A stretch of 64,000 nucleotides of DNA from an uncultured Nanoarchaeota archaeon (GTDB lineage: Archaea; Nanobdellota; Nanobdellia; Pacearchaeales; GW2011-AR1), in NCBI GenBank assembly GCA_963743615.1, contig CAVUQF010000003.1, positions 60,999-124,998 of the forward strand, written 5' to 3'. Of the stretch, positions 10,255 through 58,364 are shown piece after piece (position 1 is the stretch's first letter; every line of letters begins with the position of its first letter). A model generated the notes under the pieces. That model did no database searches. It saw nothing but the letters and a program-made list of their open reading frames with translations, and was not told where the DNA came from. Made by a program: the position numbers and the translations under genes.

Positions 10255-11499
10255 TTAGAAGGAACCTGCAGGATACATTTGCCAAGAATTTCCTCCAGGG
10301 CATTCATAAGTGCCCCAACTTGAGGGGTCTGTTGCTTGCCAAATGCAATAATAGGAGTATACTGCACACCCAACTGGTCCTTTTGAGCTATATCCATTAG
10401 AAATTCCCCAATAAGTTCCATCGTTCTTGCAATATTCATATGTAACTCCGTTATTTGTTACACTACTTGTGCCGAAGGGGCAATTGGAGCAATCTGATCC
10501 AGACCATCCTTGACAATTCCCTGAGCCATCACAAGTTTCATCTGTACCGCAAGTTGTTCCTCTTGATAAATCGGAACTGGCACTTCCACTACATGTTCCA
10601 TCGCATCCGATTGTTTTTCCACCACAAATATCGCTTCCACAACTTTGTCCTAGATTAGAAGCGCAACATGAATATCCTTCATTAAGATCACCTTCTGGAG
10701 GGGGGAAATCATAAGAATTACCCCCTGCACAAGTCTTTCCACTTCCGCATGTTCCGCAGTTCAGAGTTCCTCCGCATCCATCACTAGACGTTCCACATGT
10801 ATCAACTAACTCTGAGCAGGTGTAACATGAACTAACACAATTCCCTGAGCCGTCACAGGTTGCATCTGTACCGCAACTTGTTCCTACTGATACATAAGAA
10901 GTTTCAGTACATGACCCATCACAAGCTGTTTTTCCATTGGTACAGGCATTTACCTGACAAGGGTTTCCCATATTAAAACTACAACAATTACCTCCCGCAT
11001 TACAACTCATCCCACTTCCAGTGCAAGTTCCACAAGTTCCTCCACATCCATCACTTCCACAATTTTTTCCAGTGCAGTCCGGAACACAGCAATAAGTTTT
11101 GCTATTGATTGCTTGTTGCAGACTTTCTCCCGATGCTAAATTAATTTCTGTAGCCAGATGACTTGGATTTGGAATGTTTACACTAGTGTAAGTTAATGGA
11201 CTAGAAGGATTGGGACAAAGCCTGTCTGGTGATTGTAGAGCTGAAAGAAGAGTCATTTCTCCATCCTTCACAGAAACCCAAATTTGGCTTGCATCATGTC
11301 CGGGATCAGGAGCAGTTCCTGCGGTATAAACATGAGTTTGTCCTAGAGTGCTAGATGTTATAGAGTTCAAATTTGTTGAAACTCCATCAATGCCCACAAC
11401 GACTTGATCTGCGGGGTGAGTTCCAGATGCGCTAATAAAAGTTATAAAGACAGAGACTAGCACTAAAGAAATTATCAGTATCCCCCTTTTATGGCTCAT
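10255..11499 (-). CDS. Secreted Cys/Gly/Thr-rich repetitive protein (414 aa)
   Basis: Signal peptide, then an N-terminal domain of roughly 150 aa, then more than 60 Cys in repeated modules (CGSDGCGGTCGTC, GTSCGTDATCDGSGNC, GTTCGTDETCDGSGNC). Confidence 0.6.
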   Translation of the reverse strand: MSHKRGILIISLVLVSVFITFISASGTHPADQVVVGIDGVSTNLNSITSSTLGQTHVYTAGTAPDPGHDASQIWVSVKDGEMTLLSALQSPDRLCPNPSSPLTYTSVNIPNPSHLATEINLASGESLQQAINSKTYCCVPDCTGKNCGSDGCGGTCGTCTGSGMSCNAGGNCCSFNMGNPCQVNACTNGKTACDGSCTETSYVSVGTSCGTDATCDGSGNCVSSCYTCSELVDTCGTSSDGCGGTLNCGTCGSGKTCAGGNSYDFPPPEGDLNEGYSCCASNLGQSCGSDICGGKTIGCDGTCSGSASSDLSRGTTCGTDETCDGSGNCQGWSGSDCSNCPFGTSSVTNNGVTYEYCKNDGTYWGISNGYSSKGPVGCAVYSYYCIWQATDPSSWGTYECPGGNSWQMYPAGSF

Positions 11500-14403: not shown

Positions 14404-14525
14404 GAGCCTATAGCTCAGCCAGGTTAGAGCACCGCTCTTATATGATTGCAGTTCATATGAACTGCATCTCTCCCAGATATGTCTAAGAGAGGCGGGGGTC
14501 CACGGTTCAAATCCGTGTAGGCTCA
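14404..14525 (+). tRNA. tRNA-Ile (anticodon UAU) with a 47-nt intron at the canonical 37/38 position
   Basis: Acceptor GAGCCTA/TAGGCTC, D-arm GCTC-AGCCAGGTTA-GAGC, anticodon stem CCGCT/GGCGG, loop C-T-TAT-A with the intron at 14443-14489, T-arm CACGG-TTCAAAT-CCGTG. Confidence 0.7.
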
Positions 14526-17310: not shown

Positions 17311-17810
17311 TTATTCTTTTTGAAAACATTAATCATATCAAAGAAGGACTTCTTTTGGAAATCAGTCATCTTATTTTCATCTAAACTTATTACAATTTTT
17401 AATAAACCAAACATTGAAAGGAAAACTGTTCCTGTCAAGAAGTTCTTCCCCTCTATTTTTTGCATTGAAAATATGAACTTTTGTATCCTGTTATTGACTT
17501 CCTGCTGCCTCATTTTTTCCATTATTTTATCTTGAATCTCTTCAAAGTCAAGATTGAAATCTACTATAATTTTTTCAGGAATTCTCTTATCCAGTAAATC
17601 CAAGGTTGCAAGCTTACCCTCTTCCTCCATCTGGAAACTGAATATTTTTTCTTTACCCGGAACGAAAAAATCTAAATGATGCTTGTTATCGTTTTCTTGC
17701 TTGTCTATAACAAAAAATCCCGAGCACAAATAAGCAGTTGGATTTTCTTTTATAAACTGTAAAAAGTCCTTTGACTTTTTGAGTTGTTCTAGATAATTTT
17801 GTATATTCAT
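17307..17810 (-). CDS. hypothetical protein (167 aa)
   Basis: Intact ORF overlapping the thrS start. Confidence 0.4.
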   Translation of the reverse strand: MNIQNYLEQLKKSKDFLQFIKENPTAYLCSGFFVIDKQENDNKHHLDFFVPGKEKIFSFQMEEEGKLATLDLLDKRIPEKIIVDFNLDFEEIQDKIMEKMRQQEVNNRIQKFIFSMQKIEGKNFLTGTVFLSMFGLLKIVISLDENKMTDFQKKSFFDMINVFKKNN

Positions 17811-19504
17811 TTTCTCTCTTTGATTTCTTCTTCTATTTTAGAGATAAAATCCTTAATTTTAAAGTTTTGTATCTTTGAATCTCCTCTTACTCTTGCAGCT
17901 ATTGTCTTATCTTTTTCCTCTTTGTCTCCGACAACAATTACGTATGGTATTCTCATGATTTCAGCCTCTTTGACTTTTGCAGATAAAGTAGTATTTCTAA
18001 AATCTGCATCTAACCTTATGTTGGGAATTTTATTGCCTATTTCTTCAACTACACTCTTGGCATATTTCTCGTTTCTATCTGTGAAGGATAAGACTCTTAC
18101 TTGGATAGGAGCAAGCCAAGTTGGCAAACGGCCGCTGGTATGCTCAATGAGAATTCCAATAAACCTCTCCAAACTTCCGTACTTAACAGTATGTAACATA
18201 ACAGGACGTTTTCTACTATTATCTTTGTCTACATATTCTAACTCAAATCTTTCTGGCATTGAAAAGTCCAACTGTATTGTTGATAATTGCCACGTTCTTC
18301 CTAGTGAATCTTTGACATGAAAGTCAATTTTAGGTCCATAAAAGGCTCCTTCGCCTTTATTGATTTGATATTTCATTTTTTTATTTTTAAGGACTTTTTC
18401 AAGGTTCTGTTCTGCCTTGTCCCACACTTCATCTGTCCCTATCCTTTTTTCAGGTCTTGTTGACAACTCTATATGATCAAATTCAAGATTGAACTTTTTA
18501 TAGAAAATATCAATTACTCTCATTATTTCAGAAATTTCATTCTCTATTTGCTCTTCTATACAAAAAATGTGTGCATCATCTTGGGTAAACTGTATTACTC
18601 TGAACAATCCTGCAAGAACACCAGACAGTTCAACTCTGTGCACTATTCCCATTTCTCCCACCCTCAATGGAAACTCCTTGTAGGATTTTGGCTTGTTTCT
18701 ATAAACAATCATCCCCCCTGGACAATTCATGGGCTTTACAAGGAATTTTCTTTTTTCATACTCTGTTGAAAAATTATTATCTTTATACTTTTCCCAATGT
18801 CCTGAAATTTGCCAGAGTCTTTGATCCATTATTTGGGGAGTCGATATTTCTACATATCCATTCCTTCTGTGAATCTCTCTCCAGAAATTTATCAGTTCAT
18901 TTTTTATTATTAATCCATTGTTATGCCAGAATACCATTCCAGGCGCAACTTCGTTAAAACTGTAAAGATCCATTTCATTACCTATTATTCTGTGGTCATT
19001 ATCTTTAAGCTTTGAATTATCAAGCTTCGTCTTTGAAATTTCTCTTAAGAGTTGCTTAGGGTCATACTGTTCATTTGTTCCTATTTTTGATTTTAGCTCT
19101 CTGCTGAGCTCTGATAAGGGATGTCCCTTTACTTTTAGTTCAAATTCTTTATAATACCCGAAAGGTGCCCTAATAACTTCAAAACCTTCCCTCTTTAATT
19201 TTTCCTCTGAATCTTTTAGAATTTTAATTGCTATGGCTGGAGCGGACAGATTTGATGATAAATGAGCATAAGGGTAGAGAACAATTCTGTTGGCATTAAC
19301 TTGTTTTGCAATCTCTTTTATATTTTTCACGTAGTCTTCGACTATTTCTTGATTATCTTCCTTTTCAACTGCGGTCAGAATGACAAGAGCTTCTTTTACC
19401 GTTTTTTCTTCTTTTTCCTTTTCTGAAAGGGGTTCAACATCTTTTAGCGCCTTTTTCAATGGTTTGAATTTTATGTAATCACAATGTAAACTTAAAAATT
19501 TCAT
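17807..19504 (-). CDS. thrS: Threonyl-tRNA synthetase, archaeal type with N-terminal DTD-like editing domain
   Basis: N-terminal 'MKFLSLHCDYIKFKP' editing-domain start; class II motifs 'FRVIQFTQDDAHIFC' and 'GAFYGPKIDF'; C-terminal anticodon-binding domain. Confidence 0.85.
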   Translation of the reverse strand: MKFLSLHCDYIKFKPLKKALKDVEPLSEKEKEEKTVKEALVILTAVEKEDNQEIVEDYVKNIKEIAKQVNANRIVLYPYAHLSSNLSAPAIAIKILKDSEEKLKREGFEVIRAPFGYYKEFELKVKGHPLSELSRELKSKIGTNEQYDPKQLLREISKTKLDNSKLKDNDHRIIGNEMDLYSFNEVAPGMVFWHNNGLIIKNELINFWREIHRRNGYVEISTPQIMDQRLWQISGHWEKYKDNNFSTEYEKRKFLVKPMNCPGGMIVYRNKPKSYKEFPLRVGEMGIVHRVELSGVLAGLFRVIQFTQDDAHIFCIEEQIENEISEIMRVIDIFYKKFNLEFDHIELSTRPEKRIGTDEVWDKAEQNLEKVLKNKKMKYQINKGEGAFYGPKIDFHVKDSLGRTWQLSTIQLDFSMPERFELEYVDKDNSRKRPVMLHTVKYGSLERFIGILIEHTSGRLPTWLAPIQVRVLSFTDRNEKYAKSVVEEIGNKIPNIRLDADFRNTTLSAKVKEAEIMRIPYVIVVGDKEEKDKTIAARVRGDSKIQNFKIKDFISKIEEEIKERK

Positions 19505-19590
19505 AGCAGAAGCAAAGTTGACAAGTTTATAAAATTAATTAGGATAAACTAAACAGAAACATTTAAAAGCATTTTTCTATCAAGGGATTT

Positions 19591-20205
19591 GTGAAAAAAA
19601 GTTCGTTGTTCACACTTTTATTTGCAATTAACAGTTTTATTCTGCCTTCTTTAGCAAGGGCTCCGCCAATGTCTGATTTGCCCCCTTTAGCTTATGAAAC
19701 TGGGCCCACATACGGTGGAGCTATTGAAAATTTTGTAAATGAGAAGAAAAACGAGGATTTTTTAAATTACAAGATTTATAATTTTAATAGCGATAGTGAT
19801 GATAGACTTTTGGCTAGGATGATCTTTGGAGAAGGGGAAAGTCTCAGCAGGGCGGAAAAAATCGAGATTGCCTATACAGCCATCCATAGGGTTGAGCAAG
19901 GGTATGATAAAAGTCTTAGAGGGGCTATACTCCGTCTTGATCAGTATTCTTGCTTTAATGAGGGTACAGATAATTCTATTTTCTTGAAGGACCCTCTAAG
20001 ACACAATCCGAAGGAGTTTTTTGCATCCTTAGAAATTGCGATAGGGATTTTGGAAGGTAAAATCAAAGATCCTAAGGATGGCGCAACTTATTATTATGAT
20101 CCTAAAGTGCTTAAGACTCCTCCAGAATGGACAAAAGGCTTAGAAGAAATCAAGAGACCTGGCTTTCATCATAGATATTATAAGGAGCGAAGGCTTAGCG
20201 CTTAA
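19591..20205 (+). CDS. Secreted cell-wall (peptidoglycan) hydrolase, SleB/Hydrolase_2 family
   Basis: GTG start, signal peptide, and 'LLARMIFGEGES...AIHRV...QYSCFN...GATYYYDP...HRYYK', collinear with the SleB domain. Confidence 0.65.
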   Translation: MKKSSLFTLLFAINSFILPSLARAPPMSDLPPLAYETGPTYGGAIENFVNEKKNEDFLNYKIYNFNSDSDDRLLARMIFGEGESLSRAEKIEIAYTAIHRVEQGYDKSLRGAILRLDQYSCFNEGTDNSIFLKDPLRHNPKEFFASLEIAIGILEGKIKDPKDGATYYYDPKVLKTPPEWTKGLEEIKRPGFHHRYYKERRLSA

Positions 20206-21322
20206 TCAAAAATTTCTCGATATCCTTTTTGGCTCCTTCTCTTTTTTTCTGGTGTTCTTGCAAAAATTTGTTTATCTTCTCTATTAGAATTTCTTTCAGT
20301 TCAGAGGTCATGAGAGTTCCAGATTTATAATTTTCATAAATTTTTTCAAGTTTTTTATCATCTGATTCAAAAAACATTTTTAGATACTGGAATGAAACAT
20401 CAATGTCTGGATTACCTCCCAGCTTTCTATGTTCTTCCAAAGTATCTCTCCCTCCAGAGAATGCATATTTCTTTATTTTTGTTTCAACTTCTTTTGGGGA
20501 ATCTGTTAGGGCAATGAAAGAATTTGGTTCTGAAGAGGACATTTTCCCTCCGCCGAGTCCTGGCATGAAAAGATGGTAGGTGGAACTTAGTTGCATGAAT
20601 TTAAAATCTTTAATTCTCTGGCTCATGTCTCTTGCTAATCTTATATGAGGATCTTGATCTATTCCTACCGGAACGATCACGGGGCAGGTCCCCTCAAGTT
20701 CGGGTAGCTGGACATGAAGCATGTCTGATGCTTGAAGTATTGATGAAATCATCTTTCCAGGACTTATCTCTCCATATATTGCCTTAAACTCACTGAAAGT
20801 GGAATACTTTGCAAGAAGGTTTTGAAGTCTGTAATATGCATTTGATTTTTTTGCATCTTTACTTCTCTCACTTTGGAAATATATTTCACATTTTTCAGGT
20901 TTTAATCCTAAGGCAATATAGTTGGTTATATACTGATCGATTGCAATCTTCCTGCTTTCTTCCAAACTTTGGCCTCTTGTGTTATATGCTTCTATATCTG
21001 CAACTGCAATGTAGATTTTTGCTCCTAACTTTTGATAAAAAATCATCTGCTGAGCAAGGATCATGTGTCCTAAGTGAAATTTTCCCGTAGGCATCAGTCC
21101 GGTCATCATAACAAATTTTCTTTTGTCCTTTATGGCATCCATAATTTTTTGTATATCTCTATGAGCAAAAATAATTTTTCTTCTAAATAGGACATTTTTG
21201 TTGAAAACTTCGGGTAATTCTTTTATTTGGGAAATTCCAAATTCTTTTATTAATTTTTCATAGTTTACATTTCCAGAAACTTCCCAAGGAGTGAAGTTGA
21301 TTTTTTTCTCCTTATTCATCAT
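20195..21322 (-). CDS. trpS: Tryptophanyl-tRNA synthetase (archaeal/eukaryal type)
   Basis: 'GKFHLGHM' (HIGH) and 'KMSSS' (KMSKS); N-terminal 'TPWEVSG'; 375 aa favours TrpRS over TyrRS. Confidence 0.7.
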   Translation of the reverse strand: MMNKEKKINFTPWEVSGNVNYEKLIKEFGISQIKELPEVFNKNVLFRRKIIFAHRDIQKIMDAIKDKRKFVMMTGLMPTGKFHLGHMILAQQMIFYQKLGAKIYIAVADIEAYNTRGQSLEESRKIAIDQYITNYIALGLKPEKCEIYFQSERSKDAKKSNAYYRLQNLLAKYSTFSEFKAIYGEISPGKMISSILQASDMLHVQLPELEGTCPVIVPVGIDQDPHIRLARDMSQRIKDFKFMQLSSTYHLFMPGLGGGKMSSSEPNSFIALTDSPKEVETKIKKYAFSGGRDTLEEHRKLGGNPDIDVSFQYLKMFFESDDKKLEKIYENYKSGTLMTSELKEILIEKINKFLQEHQKKREGAKKDIEKFLIKR

Positions 21323-48298: not shown

Positions 48299-49093
48299 AT
48301 GGAAGCTCACATGGAGCCAGTCAATAAGGTAGAAGAGAAGATTATTGAAATAGGAATAAAGATAGCCAGACGAGGAGAAGGGGCAGTATTCATTCTTGGA
48401 GACAAGCTAAAGAATTACAAGTTTCTTGTTCCTCAAGATGTAAGGTCATTTAGCATAATTGATAATCCTAAGACTGCGGAATCGCTTGCATTACAGGATG
48501 GATGCGTGTGGGTTGATCAAATGGGAATTTTGAAAGGGTATGGAATAGCTATGACCAGACTTAATCCCATAATGAATAAAGGTACCAGACATGCCAGCGC
48601 TTCTTACGCTTCCAAACAGGGGAATAAAGTATTTTTGATCTCCCAGGAAGACAAAAAAATAAAGATTTTTATTAAAGGCAAAATAGTCATGGAGATAGAT
48701 GCTCTTGAAAAAGGAATAGAGAAAAAAACCAGTGAGATAGTGAGCATTTTCGAGAGTTTGGGCGCGGGAACATTAAGTGTTATGATAATGGGGGCTGCTT
48801 CCGCATTGATACCCTCTTTGTCTATGTTTGCATTTCCAATCTTGCCAGGGATAACTATCTTTACTTCGCTTTATGCATCTGCAAAGTCTATAAGGAATCT
48901 CCCTCCTGAGGGGGGCGAGAAGAAAAGAAGGATAATGAAGATTGTTATAGGAGGTATTGTTATAATCTTAGGTGTTGGAATTATGTTGATCCGTTCCAGT
49001 GTGGATATAAGACTGCGTTTGCTGACTGGAGGGGTTATCTCAGTTATTGGTTTCTTTGTCGCTTTTACGAGTAGAAAAAGGAAAGTAGAATGA
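48299..49093 (+). CDS. DAC (diadenylate cyclase, DisA_N)-domain protein with a C-terminal triple-TM anchor
   Basis: 'GAVFILGD' is followed 39 aa later by 'DGC', then 25 aa later by 'GTRHASA', then 'KVFLISQEDKKIKIF'. Spacing and motifs mirror CdaA (GALIV...HDGA...GTRHRAA...VVVSEETG). Three C-terminal TM helices follow. Confidence 0.65.
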   Translation: MEAHMEPVNKVEEKIIEIGIKIARRGEGAVFILGDKLKNYKFLVPQDVRSFSIIDNPKTAESLALQDGCVWVDQMGILKGYGIAMTRLNPIMNKGTRHASASYASKQGNKVFLISQEDKKIKIFIKGKIVMEIDALEKGIEKKTSEIVSIFESLGAGTLSVMIMGAASALIPSLSMFAFPILPGITIFTSLYASAKSIRNLPPEGGEKKRRIMKIVIGGIVIILGVGIMLIRSSVDIRLRLLTGGVISVIGFFVAFTSRKRKVE

Positions 49094-55789: not shown

Positions 55790-57133
55790 ATGAGAAAAGA
55801 AATGGCCAAAAAAGAAGTGAGCAAAAAACAGAAAGCAATGAGATATTTTCTCTGGACCATTCTGGGAGTTGTTGCAATAATAGGGATGATTGCAGCACAG
55901 ACTATAATTTCTGATCAGCAAGTCCAGACTGATTACATAAATGCTTCAAATATAAGTTATAATGGCGGGCAACTGGGTTTAAATCCAAGCAATGGGGTTC
56001 TCATTGGAGATAGCACAACAGCTGCTTATGTAGGTCAGAATAATATTGCATATTATCTTCTCACAAATGCAGATACTTTAATGGGAACAACTATCACGAC
56101 GGATGCAGTTCCTGGGCAAACAATTCAGCAGCAGCAGGCGGTATGGGACGCAGATGCAAACAAGGCAAATTATGATTGGATAATTGTCATGGTTGGATTA
56201 AATGACTGCATAAATTATAGTGATACTTCTGCCAATATCCTCTCAAGATATCAGACCTTTATCAATGATATTGATTCAAGCAAGAAATCAAGTGCTATCG
56301 TTATAATCGCAACAATGACACCTGCAAGACAGCGTTTTTATGATTTATACGGCTCGGTAAATGGATCGATAGATTATCAATTGTGGCTTGATGTGAATAA
56401 TGGAATAATGGGCAACGGGGCAAATGCTATACAAAATGTTTCTTACAGAATAGATGAGCATACTATTGCATTAAATGACGGAAATGGAAGTCTTGCTTCT
56501 TTCTATAATGTAAGCGATAATGTTCACGAGAACAATCTTGGAAGGCAGTTAGTAGCAAACGCATTCAGGAAAACATTAAACCAGGCAGGTTATTTAACTA
56601 ATGTCCCAAGTGAGATTATCGATAATTATTTCGGGAACATAAACAATACGATCTACCTTAAAGGGGGATGGTTAAATTACTTGCAGATTCAATCAAATTC
56701 AAGTGCAGGAACAGAACCAAGCGGAGATATTATTCAGCTTCGTGTCGGAAATTGGAATACTGGAGGTAACTCTGGAATCTCGATAAGCAGACCTGCAAAT
56801 TACAGGACTTCTGGATTGTATTTCCAGACGGGAACAACTAATGATTGGTTTATAGGAACTCCTTACAATGGAGGTGCTGCAAGCACTTCTTTGACAATAG
56901 GAAGCTCTGCAGCCATTTCGGCTGAAAAGATGATAATAACAAATTCAGGAGATGTTGGAATAAATACAATCTCTCCGAATGAGACTCTATCAATAAATGG
57001 AATGATGCAGTTAAATGAGACCTTATCTCCCCCATCATGCACCGCAACTTCCAACGGGAGCATTGCAAGAAATGCAACTGGTTTAATATATTGCAATCTC
57101 GTAGGTAATTGGGTTTATCTGTATACAGGATAA
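55790..57133 (+). CDS. Membrane-anchored extracellular SGNH/GDSL hydrolase with a fibre-like C-terminal region and a Cys-containing terminal knob (paralog 1)
   Basis: Signal anchor; SGNH blocks 'LIGDSTT', 'GLNDC' and 'DNVHEN'; C-terminal 'SGDVGINTISPNETLSINGMMQLN' and 'PPSCTATSNGSIARNATGLIYCNLVGNWVYL'. Confidence 0.6.
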   Translation: MRKEMAKKEVSKKQKAMRYFLWTILGVVAIIGMIAAQTIISDQQVQTDYINASNISYNGGQLGLNPSNGVLIGDSTTAAYVGQNNIAYYLLTNADTLMGTTITTDAVPGQTIQQQQAVWDADANKANYDWIIVMVGLNDCINYSDTSANILSRYQTFINDIDSSKKSSAIVIIATMTPARQRFYDLYGSVNGSIDYQLWLDVNNGIMGNGANAIQNVSYRIDEHTIALNDGNGSLASFYNVSDNVHENNLGRQLVANAFRKTLNQAGYLTNVPSEIIDNYFGNINNTIYLKGGWLNYLQIQSNSSAGTEPSGDIIQLRVGNWNTGGNSGISISRPANYRTSGLYFQTGTTNDWFIGTPYNGGAASTSLTIGSSAAISAEKMIITNSGDVGINTISPNETLSINGMMQLNETLSPPSCTATSNGSIARNATGLIYCNLVGNWVYLYTG

Positions 57134-57137
57134 AAAA

Positions 57138-58364
57138 ATGGATGAAATAAAAACTAAGCATAAAGTATTAAGATATTCTCTCTTTACATTATTTGGAATT
57201 CTTTTGCTGGTTGTAGGAGTTTATGCTACCACAATAATCTCGGATCAGCAAACTTCTACTCCTTATATAAATGCTTCAAATATCTCATGGATTACGAATA
57301 ATAACAAAGAAGTTGTATTCGAGGGCGATAGCATTACTGATTATGTCAATAAGCCAAACTCGACATGGAGCTTGAATGTTTCTAACTCTTCCTTGTTTGC
57401 TGATGCAGTTTTTTATAATGTTGCAATGACTGGAGATACTGTCTGTAATATGACGACAGAATATGCTTCTCAAGTCCATCCTCTCGCTCCAAAGAATAAT
57501 CAGACAAATGCGTACTTCTTTTTATGGGCCGGAACAAATGATCTTTATTATGATTCAAACTCTTCAACCATTCTCTCTTGCCTTGAGATAGAATGGGCTA
57601 TGGCTCGTGCAGATGGATTTAAAGTCGTTGCGGTTACAATCACAAATAGATCGGGAGTATATATCTTAAATGGAACACAAGAGAGCAATAGAACTGCATT
57701 GAACGGAGGAATAATAGCAGCTTCTTCCCAATATGATTATTTGATAAGAGCCGATTTGATTCTTCCAGATCCAACAAACACAACCTACTTTGTTGATGGA
57801 TTGCATCCAACTCCCGCAGGTTCTTATCTTATAGCTTCGAATTTTGTCAATAACTTTTATTCTAATCCTTATAATGAACTGAATAACTGGGAGGGAAATC
57901 TAGGAATTGGAACAACAACTCCCCCAACTGCATTAACTATAGTTGCCCCAGAAAGTTCAACCAATGGAATATTAAAGTTGCAAGTTCAGAATGGTCAGCC
58001 ATTCGATTTTGCAGGAATTTCTTTCTTTGCAAAAAGTCAATCTCCGACAGCAGGATCTCTTAATTGGATGATTTCAACAAATTATAACCAATATGGAGAG
58101 CTTAATTTTCTTAGAAGCACCAGTTCATCAACAAATCCTACAATAAGCACTTTAGATCTTATGAGTAGCGGAAATGTTGGAGTGAATACAACAGCTCCAA
58201 TTTCAACTTTGGAAGTAAATGGAAATGCAACAATAGACCAGCTTATGAATCTCTCTGTGATGAATATTCCCCCATGTGGAGCTTCGACTAATGGAAGCAT
58301 AGCTCGAAATTCAAGTGGAGATTATGTATGCGGAGCAAACGGAGTATGGAAGTTCTTGGGATAA
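57138..58364 (+). CDS. Membrane-anchored extracellular SGNH/GDSL hydrolase with a fibre-like C-terminal region (paralog 2)
   Basis: Shares with paralog 1 the N-terminal 'TIISDQQ..T.YINASNIS' and the C-terminal 'SGNVGVNTTAPISTLEVNGN' and 'PPCGASTNGSIARNSSGDYVCGANGVWKFL'. SGNH blocks 'FEGDSIT', 'GTNDL' and 'DGLHPT'. Confidence 0.6.
   Translation: MDEIKTKHKVLRYSLFTLFGILLLVVGVYATTIISDQQTSTPYINASNISWITNNNKEVVFEGDSITDYVNKPNSTWSLNVSNSSLFADAVFYNVAMTGDTVCNMTTEYASQVHPLAPKNNQTNAYFFLWAGTNDLYYDSNSSTILSCLEIEWAMARADGFKVVAVTITNRSGVYILNGTQESNRTALNGGIIAASSQYDYLIRADLILPDPTNTTYFVDGLHPTPAGSYLIASNFVNNFYSNPYNELNNWEGNLGIGTTTPPTALTIVAPESSTNGILKLQVQNGQPFDFAGISFFAKSQSPTAGSLNWMISTNYNQYGELNFLRSTSSSTNPTISTLDLMSSGNVGVNTTAPISTLEVNGNATIDQLMNLSVMNIPPCGASTNGSIARNSSGDYVCGANGVWKFLG

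Follow-up and report, generated by a model that had tools for sequence, protein, structure and literature searches.

The hydrolase gene lies in a window of 64,000 nucleotides (the whole stretch of DNA that was analysed), and the source chromosome was confirmed to be archaeal, belonging to the class Nanoarchaeia within the DPANN. The archaeal markers detected in the window comprise a threonyl-tRNA synthetase (ThrRS) with the archaea-specific editing domain, MCM, RFC, FEN1, PolB and CDC48. A tRNA of 122 nt, which probably contains an intron, was also found, and the genome nearest to it bears the label Candidatus Nanoarchaeia archaeon.

The coordinates of the gene, its domains and its neighbours are given in Table 1. 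The open reading frame and the GTG start codon reported in the preliminary description were confirmed, the start being supported by the orthologues, which begin with ATG at the homologous position. The putative promoter element recurs at other loci: a TTTAAAA-type box was found at equal distance in the window and in L001, L038 (as TTAAAAA), L039, L042 and L043, and was absent from L040 and L041. The conserved membrane protein encoded downstream travels together with the hydrolase in synteny, any functional link between the two being putative, and no sequence match to its C-terminal domain was found in the PDB. The window also encodes membrane-anchored GDSL/SGNH hydrolases (55790–58364), which are candidates for peptidoglycan O-acetyl esterases, an activity needed by lytic transglycosylases when the murein is O-acetylated.

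Table 1. Features of the hydrolase locus (positions within the window)
Feature	Position	Strand	Remarks
Archaeal ThrRS with archaea-specific editing domain	17807..19504	-	Divergent neighbour; syntenic marker, no functional implication
TATA-like box TTTAAAAG	19562..19569	+	About 25 nt 5' of the GTG; putative promoter of archaeal type, giving a transcript with a short leader or none
Hydrolase_2 (SleB-fold) protein of 204 aa, predicted to be exported; complete gene	19591..20205	+	GTG start
Predicted export signal / membrane anchor	19591..19662	+	Residues 1–24: MKK, hydrophobic SSLFTLLFAINSFILPSL and ARA, then PP
Linker, variable, low-confidence	19663..19767	+	Residues 25–59, including a short helix (42–54); pLDDT about 50–78
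SleB-fold catalytic domain	19768..20190	+	Residues 60–200; pLDDT, Foldseek, profile alignment with 4FET/4F55
Codon of the predicted catalytic glutamate E81	19831..19833	+	First E of GEGE; invariance and alignment to SleB
TrpRS	20195..21322	-	Convergent neighbour and syntenic marker; shares 11 nt at its 3' end with the hydrolase gene
Membrane protein of 683 aa	21395..23446	+	Signal peptide and MG2/Ig-like ectodomain, then a TM at about residue 410 and, in the cytoplasm, a C-terminal domain of no recognised family

Family and fold of the hydrolase

The preliminary description had assigned the protein to the SleB/Hydrolase_2 family from a series of motifs. All of them were found, namely LLARMIFGEGES (residues 73–84), AIHRV (97–101), QYSCFN (118–123), GATYYYDP (164–171) and HRYYK (194–198), and the assignment was borne out by both sequence and structure comparison. 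In Pfam, the match to Hydrolase_2 (PF07486) reached 33.0 bits, above the gathering threshold of 27 bits (E 9.5e-8, residues 90–192). It is the sole Pfam domain of the protein, in which PG_binding_1, any other wall-binding domain and SLT were searched for and not found. Matches were also obtained to the PHROG endolysin families 15649 and 938 (E 9.2e-9 and 1.8e-8). Searching the PDB with the profile of the 109-sequence family retrieved the catalytic domains of SleB only (4FET, 1.8e-7; 4F55, 2.5e-7), which were aligned end to end. The AF2 model, with pLDDT of 92–98 over residues 61–200, recovered the same two structures in Foldseek (probability 1.00, target TM 0.66–0.76, ~130 columns) and nothing else below E=1. 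In BFVD, 20 phage structures annotated as 'SleB cell wall hydrolase' were found at E ≤ 1e-3. The 204-aa protein is a genuine SleB-fold Hydrolase_2 protein.

Relatives were collected by sequence search, which returned three with the single sequence and 399 with an alignment of the domain only. The full-length alignment of 59 sequences used as query gave four relatives among 8000 scored, probably as a result of variable N-termini. PF07486 was the precomputed annotation on all 120 relatives among the matches listed, and SH3_3 or LysM wall-binding domains are present in three relatives. Conservation was evaluated in two alignments of 59 (A3) and 109 (A5) sequences. The linker differs in both length and sequence among the relatives, and the mature domain of the window protein is only weakly basic, with a pI of about 8.0 (family median 9.0).

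Bacillus SleB and CwlJ (PF07486; 4F55, 4FET) share with the archaeal hydrolase the fold, the Pfam family and a single catalytic glutamate in the equivalent helix, and the C-terminal motifs DPT-G-A-x-Y-[FY]-x-P ... W ... H-x-F are common to them. The identity is, however, only 17–20% (~18% for the spore SleB of Bacillus), and the NCBIfam equivalog model spore_SleB (TIGR02869) scored 23.3 bits, far below its cut-off of 236.5. Strict likeness to SleB, as first suggested by the collinear motifs, was thus not upheld. The archaeal protein has no N-terminal PG-binding domain (PG_binding_1), no spore context and no YpeB partner, displays a signal or anchor instead, and is nearer to the phage and prophage endolysins of Gram-negative bacteria. 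Its substrate cannot be the spore cortex.

Catalytic glutamate and predicted chemistry

E81, which ends the first long helix, was aligned opposite the glutamate of the 'YGE' motif of SleB and showed no exception among the relatives in either A3 or A5. The catalytic glutamate of the GEGE block, for which a check had been proposed, is therefore retained and invariant in the 109 relatives. The other positions that are invariant in this larger set are F65, D68, R76, G80, R100, L114, Y119, P135 and P178. The hydrolase is most likely a lytic transglycosylase. Enzymes of this class, to which it is assigned purely by homology to SleB, break the MurNAc-beta-1,4-GlcNAc bond without hydrolysis and leave 1,6-anhydroMurNAc. 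Bacillus SleB requires muramic-delta-lactam, a modification that vegetative murein does not contain, and the specificity of SleB is for this reason not transferable by homology. Murein as the substrate, enzymatic activity and biological role are all predictions drawn from sequence. A catalytic glutamate is described as indispensable both for SleB and for a T6SS toxin resembling it (PMC12331253, PMC11148199), and the exchange E108Q as abolishing the toxicity of a SleB-like T6SS effector (PMC11148199).

Export signal and topology

The N-terminal 24 residues of the hydrolase start with MKK, followed by a hydrophobic stretch of 18 residues (1.85 in a Kyte–Doolittle window of 15 aa). An N-terminal K/R with a hydrophobic segment was also present in 90 of the 109 relatives. 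The A-R-A site of the hydrolase is followed by a proline at position +1, and the motif (A/V)-x-A-P occurred in 33 out of 109 relatives, as compared to a mean of 15.5 and a maximum of 25 in shuffled sequences. Cleavage of the signal is uncertain because of this proline. The signal peptide of the preliminary description thus stands as a predicted export signal which is found family-wide. With a conserved proline after the predicted A-x-A, it may either be cleaved, giving a secreted enzyme, or be kept as a membrane anchor. The hydrolase is predicted to be exported and is possibly tethered to the membrane.

Distribution, synteny and ancestry

The usual genomic slot of the gene is ThrRS, hydrolase, TrpRS and MG2-like membrane protein, in this order, and it was found in lineages that are only 40–62% identical, on contigs of up to 652 kb. 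Complete or near-complete contigs with the gene include JGI Ga0315284_10000002 (581 kb), Ga0315274_10000003 (652 kb) and GCA_049288015.1. Among the contigs read, an identical protein with identical neighbours was present on 12 contigs from independent assemblies. Of the 29 GTDB loci, 26 carry one of the labels Nanoarchaeota, Woesearchaeota and Pacearchaeota; another two are archaeal according to their neighbour genes or label. All database relatives with taxonomic names are archaeal. The genome scans used clade-specific patterns derived from DPANN sequences, so that the near-confinement to archaea is in part a product of the search and the distribution of the whole superfamily is out of their reach. 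Within this scope, the gene is an old and stably inherited fixture of the lineage and belongs to a large clade that is almost confined to Woese-, Pace- and Nanoarchaeota.

Two candidates were rejected in the course of the analysis. A 'Dojkabacteria' sequence had been considered as a bacterial (CPR) member of the clade; it is flanked by ThrRS and TrpRS genes of archaeal type (~65% identity), and the contig is thus regarded as mis-binned. P0002 had been considered as a pseudogenised close relative; it comes from the same strain and carries a 2-nt lesion beside an A-run, which is most likely an assembly error.

The composition of the hydrolase gene (GC 0.384, GC3 0.337) is within about 1.4 SD of the genes of the window. 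The dN/dS against a syntenic orthologue was about 0.22, an approximate value as dS is near saturation (1.25). The nearest non-archaeal relatives were SleB-type endolysins of phages of Gram-negative bacteria (for example Pseudomonas phage PAJU2 and Stenotrophomonas Menderavirus phages), which are also the closest annotated ones, with 27–33% identity over the domain (tblastn), and a prophage lysin in Tectomicrobia. Horizontal acquisition, as raised in the preliminary description, is consistent with this bacterial or phage-like ancestry, but not as a recent event. The conserved slot at 40–62% identity, the host-like GC, the recurrent TATA-like box and the purifying selection indicate that the transfer, if any, was ancient and was followed by vertical inheritance.

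The phage endolysins and the archaeal hydrolase both have a single domain of ~140 aa and display the motifs GEA/GEARGE, Q[YF]SC[FW]N, DPTxGATHY and PxWA. Some of the endolysins also have an N-terminal hydrophobic signal (Bhz51). Unlike them, the archaeal hydrolase is encoded on the chromosome between aminoacyl-tRNA synthetase genes rather than in a lysis cassette, and has an extra linker. It is also proposed to act on a foreign cell from outside, whereas the phage endolysin acts from inside its producer.

Relation to other murein-acting enzymes

Murein hydrolases in DPANN and other archaea have already been published. The large 'murein-like lytic transglycosylase' surface proteins (GH23) of Woese- and Pacearchaeota (Castelle et al. 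2021, PMC8204110; Vigneron et al. 2022, PMC9723730) occur in the same organisms and have the same proposed substrate, chemistry and ecology as the hydrolase described here. They display the unrelated SLT/GH23 fold and reach up to ~3000 aa (fam00969, PMC8204110), in contrast to the single domain of the 204-aa hydrolase. According to the literature, Woese- and Pacearchaeota possess murein-acting enzymes other than the hydrolase, and it is proposed there that they live as episymbionts on bacteria or prey on them.

Archaea were also found to carry modular peptidoglycan hydrolases (PGHs), murein hydrolases of bacterial type that frequently have a signal peptide. They are interpreted as anti-bacterial, and for part of them such an action, including the killing of bacteria, was demonstrated (PLoS Biol 2025, PMC12352652). 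The transfer of a GH25 lysozyme to Aciduliprofundum is known from Metcalf et al. (2014), as cited in PMC12352652. That survey (PMC12352652) considered proteins with at least one catalytic and at least one cell-wall-binding domain, a definition which leaves out the window hydrolase, and PF07486 was not found in its text and supplements. The modular PGHs are patchy and plasmid-biased, while the archaeal Hydrolase_2 gene is syntenic and vertically inherited.

In two other settings a protein of this type is directed against bacteria or was adopted by a recipient without murein. The T6SS effector T6EC3 (PMC11148199) has a SleB-like fold turned on vegetative bacteria, delivered by T6SS injection. 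The cwh genes of ladybirds (PMC7807722) encode Hydrolase_2 proteins that were domesticated in a murein-less recipient, where signal peptides were gained, in a setting of insect immunity; these PF07486 proteins restrict the growth of B. subtilis.

Proposed function and alternative explanations

A role against bacterial murein would be the best explanation of the data, and predation on, or attachment to, bacteria may be its context. The hydrolase is likely to be an exported, single-domain, SleB-fold enzyme which cleaves murein with E81 as acid/base, originates from an ancient phage-type capture and acts on the murein of bacteria. The Sec-type N-terminal signal would place the catalytic domain outside the archaeal membrane. 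There, the enzyme would either be released or be held at the surface by an uncleaved signal anchor and the flexible linker of ~35 residues, the anchor being considered because of the conserved proline after the A-x-A site. The single domain would cut the glycan strands of peptidoglycan, with E81 serving as the single catalytic acid/base. The substrate would be bacterial murein, present either in a host or prey cell where it is touched by the archaeon or in wall debris that is scavenged. As murein is absent from the archaeon itself, an immunity protein would be unnecessary. The gene would derive from a lineage of phage- or prophage-type endolysins in Gram-negative bacteria. An ancestral member of the Woese-, Pace- and Nanoarchaeota would have acquired it in the distant past, and since then it would have been inherited vertically on the chromosome under an archaeal promoter. 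Some points speak against this reading. The murein of Gram-negative bacteria lies behind the outer membrane, so that access to it needs direct contact or a helper. The hydrolase of the window has no recognisable wall-binding domain and only a weakly basic mature domain. Vertical inheritance in a syntenic slot under purifying selection would equally suit a housekeeping function on the cell's own envelope.

A more specific scenario is conceivable, although doubtful in its entirety. In it, the gene would be a vertically inherited tool that defines the lineage of Woese-, Pace- and Nanoarchaeota. The scenario would combine one capture from a phage of a Gram-negative bacterium, fixation between ThrRS and TrpRS, and a signal-anchored enzyme (A-x-A-P) that opens the murein sacculus of a host bacterium where the two cells touch.

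It is unlikely that bacterial murein is cleaved for nutrition only, with wall debris feeding amino-sugar and amino-acid salvage and no part in attachment or killing. The muramoyl-tetrapeptide carboxypeptidase, which frees alanine from murein fragments, is reported as abundant in Pacearchaeota genomes, and these genomes have a reduced biosynthetic capacity. Furthermore, no toxin, immunity or secretion-system gene adjoining the hydrolase was found in the window and the syntenic loci. However, a small and maybe tethered enzyme would be a poor scavenger of distant insoluble sacculi. The biochemistry would be the same as in the preferred explanation, and sequence data cannot separate the two.

A housekeeping autolysin, whose target would be a so far undescribed layer of glycan in the archaeal envelope itself, remodelled as the cell grows or divides, and not bacteria, is improbable. 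Vertical inheritance, synteny with core genes and purifying selection are more typical of housekeeping than of the patchy, weapon-like PGHs, and the hydrolase may be tethered to the membrane. Against it, no wall-synthesis genes were found within the 64-kb window. In the literature searched, a pseudomurein wall is described only in Methanobacteriales and Methanopyrales, and no report of DPANN archaea making murein or pseudomurein themselves was found, the latter being absence of evidence only. The relatives bearing SH3_3 or LysM and those among the phage endolysins also point to true murein.

There is little probability that the target is another beta-1,4-linked amino-sugar polymer (chitin, chito-oligosaccharides) or the glycans of an archaeal host, since murein is the substrate of every characterised or annotated relative. 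It is true that the hydrolase of the window has no wall-binding domain that would fix the substrate, and chitin is also cleaved by some lysozyme-like folds. In pseudomurein, the links are beta-1,3 and the N-acetyltalosaminuronic acid has a carboxylate at C6; a lytic transglycosylase would therefore be unable to form its 1,6-anhydro product there. A partnership of Woesearchaeota with methanogens, which would favour archaeal glycans as target, is proposed in PMC7844129.

Finally, contamination of the assembly by bacterial or phage DNA, an endolysin belonging to an integrated virus or a recent horizontal transfer can be dismissed as most improbable: phage and prophage lysins are indeed the nearest non-archaeal homologues and PHROG endolysin families were matched, but these options are effectively refuted by the ThrRS–TrpRS position in many divergent DPANN genomes, and further ruled out by recovery in multiple independent assemblies (the 12 contigs), the host-like composition, the lack of any holin, tail or capsid gene near the hydrolase and the IMG/VR scan, in which no close viral relatives were found.

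Significance for the biology of DPANN archaea

While GH23 proteins and modular PGHs are established in archaea, the archaeal Hydrolase_2 clade was not found in the literature searched. The archaeal PGH repertoire is probably underestimated, as the design of the main survey (PMC12352652) left out PGHs with a single domain. The present case indicates that in archaea a gene for a peptidoglycan hydrolase can evolve into a stable one that is inherited vertically, unlike the patchy, plasmid-biased and weapon-like PGHs.

Woese- and Pacearchaeota make up a very large part of archaeal diversity, and the proposal that their hosts are bacteria has been based mainly on GH23 genes. The presence of the hydrolase fits the published idea of DPANN archaea living on or off bacteria. 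As a second and unrelated murein-type enzyme, conserved in the lineage and located on the core chromosome, it strengthens the proposal of bacterial hosts, and its small size and easy expression make it a practical experimental handle. If the scenario of an anchored enzyme opening the sacculus of a bacterial host were true, the hydrolase would be a genomic marker indicating that the episymbiosis of archaea on bacteria is ancestral and widespread in a large DPANN radiation, and it would offer a handle for finding the hosts of this radiation.

Genomic context of the hydrolase gene

The hydrolase gene was recovered exactly as put forward in the preliminary description, with the same position, GTG start and every quoted motif; it encodes 204 aa. 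A gap of 86 bp separates it from the ThrRS gene. Elsewhere the window encodes MCM, two RFC subunits, FEN1/XPG, a family-B DNA polymerase, CDC48, an Lhr helicase, topoisomerase IA, FtsZ, GatA, PheRS alpha and beta, and tRNA/rRNA modification enzymes, a gene content typical of an archaeal core chromosome. The GC content stays at 31-39% over the whole length. The nearest public genome (GCA_049288015.1) is labelled 'Candidatus Nanoarchaeia archaeon', identifying the host as a DPANN archaeon. Four tRNAs are present in the window; the 122-nt tRNA detected with Rfam only fits an intron-containing archaeal tRNA, since an intron is expected to hide it from ARAGORN.

Two further proteins of the window were recorded. 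The 414-aa protein begins with a signal-like segment, matches no Pfam family and exceeds all other window ORFs in GC (0.428, mean 0.347); it may be another surface protein. The 264-aa protein with a DAC (diadenylate-cyclase) domain (Pfam 27.6 bits, threshold 27) carries hydrophobic segments at its C-terminus and suggests c-di-AMP signalling in the reduced genome.

Features of the window with coordinates and strand
Feature	Position	Strand	Remarks
414-aa protein	10255-11499	-	
tRNA, 122 nt	14404-14525	+	Rfam 54.6 bits; missed by ARAGORN
ThrRS	17807-19504	-	archaea-specific editing domain; divergent neighbour of hydrolase
TATA-like box	19562-19569		TTTAAAAG
Hydrolase	19591-20205	+	GTG start, 204 aa
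Codon of E81	19831-19833	+	
TrpRS	20195-21322	-	convergent neighbour; 3' end overlaps hydrolase gene by 11 nt
MG2-like membrane protein, 683 aa	21395-23446	+	always after TrpRS in conserved block
264-aa DAC-domain protein	48299-49093	+	
GDSL/SGNH hydrolase, 447 aa	55790-57133	+	N-terminal membrane anchor
GDSL/SGNH hydrolase, 408 aa	57138-58364	+	N-terminal membrane anchor; in tandem with preceding gene
Membrane protein, 374 aa	58315-59439	+	no family assigned; after the two tandem GDSL/SGNH genes

Family, fold and catalytic residue

The protein belongs to the SleB/Hydrolase_2 family. The Hydrolase_2 domain proposed earlier was confirmed with Pfam (PF07486, 33.0 bits, gathering cut-off 27), and PHROG endolysin families matched at E about 1e-8. 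As a single sequence the protein gave a marginal match to PDB sequences (4F55, E=0.15). A profile of 109 relatives retrieved two PDB sequences only, the catalytic domains of SleB from B. cereus and from B. anthracis (1.8e-7 and 2.5e-7), with alignments extending from the first helix through to the C-terminus. The AlphaFold2 model obtained from the same alignment reached a pLDDT of 92-98 over residues 61-200. In the PDB, Foldseek matched this model to SleB structures only (probability 1.00, target-normalised TM 0.66-0.76, ~130 columns), the first hit beyond them being at E=1.6, and in BFVD to 20 phage 'SleB cell wall hydrolase' models (E<=1e-3). Strict identity with SleB did not hold, and orthology was rejected: the spore_SleB equivalog model scored 23 bits against a cut-off of 236.5, and Pfam detected no N-terminal peptidoglycan-binding domain as in SleB.

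Since the Pfam model begins just past the catalytic helix, the catalytic residue was checked through PDB alignments. E81, the first Glu of the GEGE block, aligned to the Glu of SleB 'YGE' and does not vary in either alignment of relatives (59 and 109 sequences); the catalytic glutamate sought in this block is thus retained. According to secondary literature, this glutamate is essential for SleB to act as a lytic transglycosylase (PMC12331253, PMC11148199), and a SleB-like T6SS effector lost its toxicity with the equivalent change E108Q (PMC11148199).

Start, promoter and export signal

The N-terminus displays the layout of a Sec signal, with MKK followed by 18 mostly hydrophobic residues and ARA-PP. 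A hydrophobic window (Kyte-Doolittle >=1.6 over 15 residues) preceded by 2-3 Lys/Arg was found in 90 of the 109 relatives, which makes predicted export a family-wide property. At seven other loci the orthologues begin with ATG at the homologous position, and six of the eight loci compared, the window among them, have a TATA-like box placed about 25 nt upstream of the start. This spacing is that of a putative archaeal promoter whose leader is very short or absent. Both the GTG start and the signal noted initially thus have good support.

Within the sub-clade of the window protein, a recurrent (A/V)-x-A-P motif closes the hydrophobic stretch; it is present in 33 of the 109 sequences against 15.5 +/- 3.5 (maximum 25) in shuffles. 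Type I signal peptidases disfavour proline directly after an A-x-A site; the signal may thus remain as a membrane anchor, and might tether the catalytic domain via a linker of ~35 residues, which was modelled with low confidence. Of the proposed secretion, the predicted exported topology stands, and the signal may be either cleaved or kept as a surface anchor. Whether secreted or surface-tethered, the catalytic domain is predicted to face outward.

Relatives and taxonomic spread

When 1.84 billion cluster representatives were searched exhaustively with a profile, 2192 proteins passed E<=1e-3; of these, 392 passed <=1e-10 and 52 passed <=1e-30. Nearly all of the best matches are 180-280 aa long and share the layout of the window protein, i.e. 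a signal, a variable linker and a domain of ~140 aa. Longer members of the same clade were also seen: P0108 and P0145 combine SH3_3 and P0119 LysM with Hydrolase_2, all three on short contigs without taxonomic assignment, and P0080 (516 aa, locus L043) has a large unannotated N-terminal extension and adjoins TrpRS like the window gene. From a word-indexed database, a profile limited to the domain recovered 399 proteins, and all those with a taxonomic name are archaeal (Nanoarchaeota or Pacearchaeota).

A GTDB scan with one genome per species gave 29 confirmed loci, 26 of which are labelled Nanoarchaeota, Woesearchaeota, Pacearchaeota or uncultured archaeon; as its patterns were built from DPANN sequences, it reveals a large DPANN clade and not the spread of all Hydrolase_2 proteins. 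Bacterial (CPR) membership was rejected for the 'Candidatus Dojkabacteria' locus (JAFCCB010000031.1, 7 kb, 29% GC), where archaeal-type ThrRS and TrpRS, ~65% identical to those of the window, flank the hydrolase and indicate that the contig is from a DPANN archaeon and was wrongly binned into a CPR MAG. The label 'uncultured Methanosarcinales' of CAZFJK010000004.1 is doubtful, given its 35% GC and an Lhr-type helicase N-terminus resembling the window's. One locus of the 29 is truly bacterial, a Tectomicrobia contig of 66% GC; its version (143 aa, no signal) lies among tape-measure and tail-like genes, pointing to a prophage lysin.

Origin and inheritance

In sequenced phages, the protein was matched best by proteins of Pseudomonas and Stenotrophomonas phages annotated as endolysins (27-33% identity; 17-20% with Bacillus SleB), which share the motifs GEARGE, Q[FY]SC[WF]N, DPTxGATHY and PxWA. 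IMG/VR yielded no close relatives. The archaeal sequences formed one clade in a rough neighbour-joining tree (sparse outgroup, support values not computed), with the Tectomicrobia prophage lysin as sister, followed outward by the Pseudomonas phage endolysins, and SleB outside. These data agree with an origin in a phage-type endolysin lineage; phage and prophage lysins are the nearest non-archaeal kin.

The order ThrRS(-), Hydrolase_2(+), TrpRS(-) and MG2-like membrane protein(+, ~650-690 aa) is conserved. It is complete around a 62%-identical orthologue and recurs around members of 40-47% identity on contigs of 581, 652, 97 and 22 kb. TrpRS and the MG2-like gene are retained beside the hydrolase in a Pacearchaeota genome, TrpRS beside the 516-aa member with expanded N-terminus, and at least one conserved neighbour at 20 of the 29 GTDB loci (tblastn). 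GC (0.384; window genes 0.347 +/- 0.027) and GC3 (0.337; 0.286 +/- 0.039) of the hydrolase are within about 1.4 SD. Compared with the syntenic orthologue, dN/dS is about 0.22 for the hydrolase, at a dS of 1.25 that is near saturation, and is similar for TrpRS (0.19) and the MG2-like gene (0.14). On 12 contigs from independent assemblies, both the protein and its neighbours are identical. All these observations rule out contamination, prophage or recent transfer. Synteny, composition and dN/dS together indicate that the gene was acquired long ago and then passed on vertically within Woese-/Pace-/Nanoarchaeota. Of the horizontal acquisition first suggested, an ancient bacterial or phage-type origin is thus consistent with the data, and a recent event is not, given the conserved slot and host-like GC.

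In one contig of the same strain (L048, ENA ERZ25039472 contig_109816) a 2-nt lesion adjoining an A6 run (window about 19856-19863) breaks the hydrolase into ORFs of 90 and 125 aa, the DNA being otherwise 100% identical. ThrRS is likewise split in another sample's assembly (L007, 6216-7914). Both are probably homopolymer assembly errors and not pseudogenes.

Neighbouring genes

Depending on the genome, the syntenic slot holds one of two TrpRS types (window; L001, L010-L014, L023, L025, L038-L042). The window TrpRS is 44-46% identical to that of the closest relative, although ThrRS reaches 82% and PheRS-beta 87%, and 71-80% identical to those of more distant genomes (ThrRS 73%). This discordance suggests xenologous replacement in situ in some lineages. 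In the MG2-like protein, a signal peptide and an MG2/Ig-like ectodomain (Pfam MG2, 40 bits) are combined with a TM segment near residue 410 and a cytoplasmic C-terminal domain of ~240 aa, for which neither Pfam nor PDB sequences gave a match. The protein may serve as a surface receptor or adhesin. On O-acetylated murein, lytic transglycosylases depend on peptidoglycan O-acetyl esterases, which belong to the SGNH esterases; the tandem GDSL/SGNH pair could encode such enzymes or equally lipases.

Function and substrate

The protein thus combines a conserved SleB-fold domain and its catalytic Glu with export predicted from the signal. Once exported, the enzyme would act on murein outside the archaeal cell and cut its MurNAc-GlcNAc bond, probably by a SleB-type lytic-transglycosylase mechanism. 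Murein as substrate is inferred from the phage-endolysin kin, the SH3_3 or LysM wall-binding domains fused to some family members, and the activity of the fold on vegetative bacteria, seen in a T6SS effector (PMC11148199) and in ladybird cwh proteins acting on B. subtilis (PMC7807722). The catalytic domains of the family are mostly basic (median pI 9.0; near 8 in the window protein), like those of many lysins acting from outside. Pseudomurein contains N-acetyltalosaminuronic acid with a C6 carboxylate and beta-1,3 links, so that a 1,6-anhydro product cannot form; on this established chemistry it is an unlikely substrate.

The main rival, a housekeeping autolysin for some endogenous archaeal glycan, would suit the vertical, syntenic inheritance and purifying selection, but no report of murein-like synthesis in DPANN was found in the literature, and we regard it as quite improbable. 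Wall-synthesis genes are absent from the 64-kb window. No genes for an immunity protein, holin or secretion-system partner were found in any genomic context examined, and a producer devoid of murein needs no immunity protein, which fits a solitary gene. Of the bacteria-directed role proposed at the outset, a bacterial target is upheld as likely, with murein as the predicted substrate. The enzyme could open the wall of a bacterial host at the contact site, kill competitors or digest wall debris for salvage. Bacterial hosts or prey have been proposed for these archaea from GH23 transglycosylases, pore-forming toxins and LdcA carboxypeptidase (PMC8204110, PMC9723730 among sources).

Murein hydrolases in archaea are already established. 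Archaeal PGHs kill bacteria and are prominent in Nanoarchaeota, as reported in a 2025 study of modular enzymes only (catalytic plus binding domain), in which PF07486 is absent from text and supplements (PMC12352652), and large GH23 transglycosylase proteins were described in Woese-/Pacearchaeota (PMC8204110, PMC9723730). In the literature searched, no paper combined SleB with DPANN, and the four naming PF07486 alongside archaea appear to concern phages, viruses or insects. Some family members are already labelled 'cell wall hydrolase' at NCBI. The Hydrolase_2 clade adds a further predicted murein-hydrolase family to DPANN. Its enzyme is small, has a single domain, occurs across the lineage and keeps a fixed slot in the core chromosome, in contrast to weapon-like archaeal PGHs, whose distribution is reported as patchy and plasmid-biased (PMC12352652). 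While revealing no new kind of system, it strengthens the case for bacteria-directed lifestyles of Woese-/Pacearchaeota and offers a handle for experiments.
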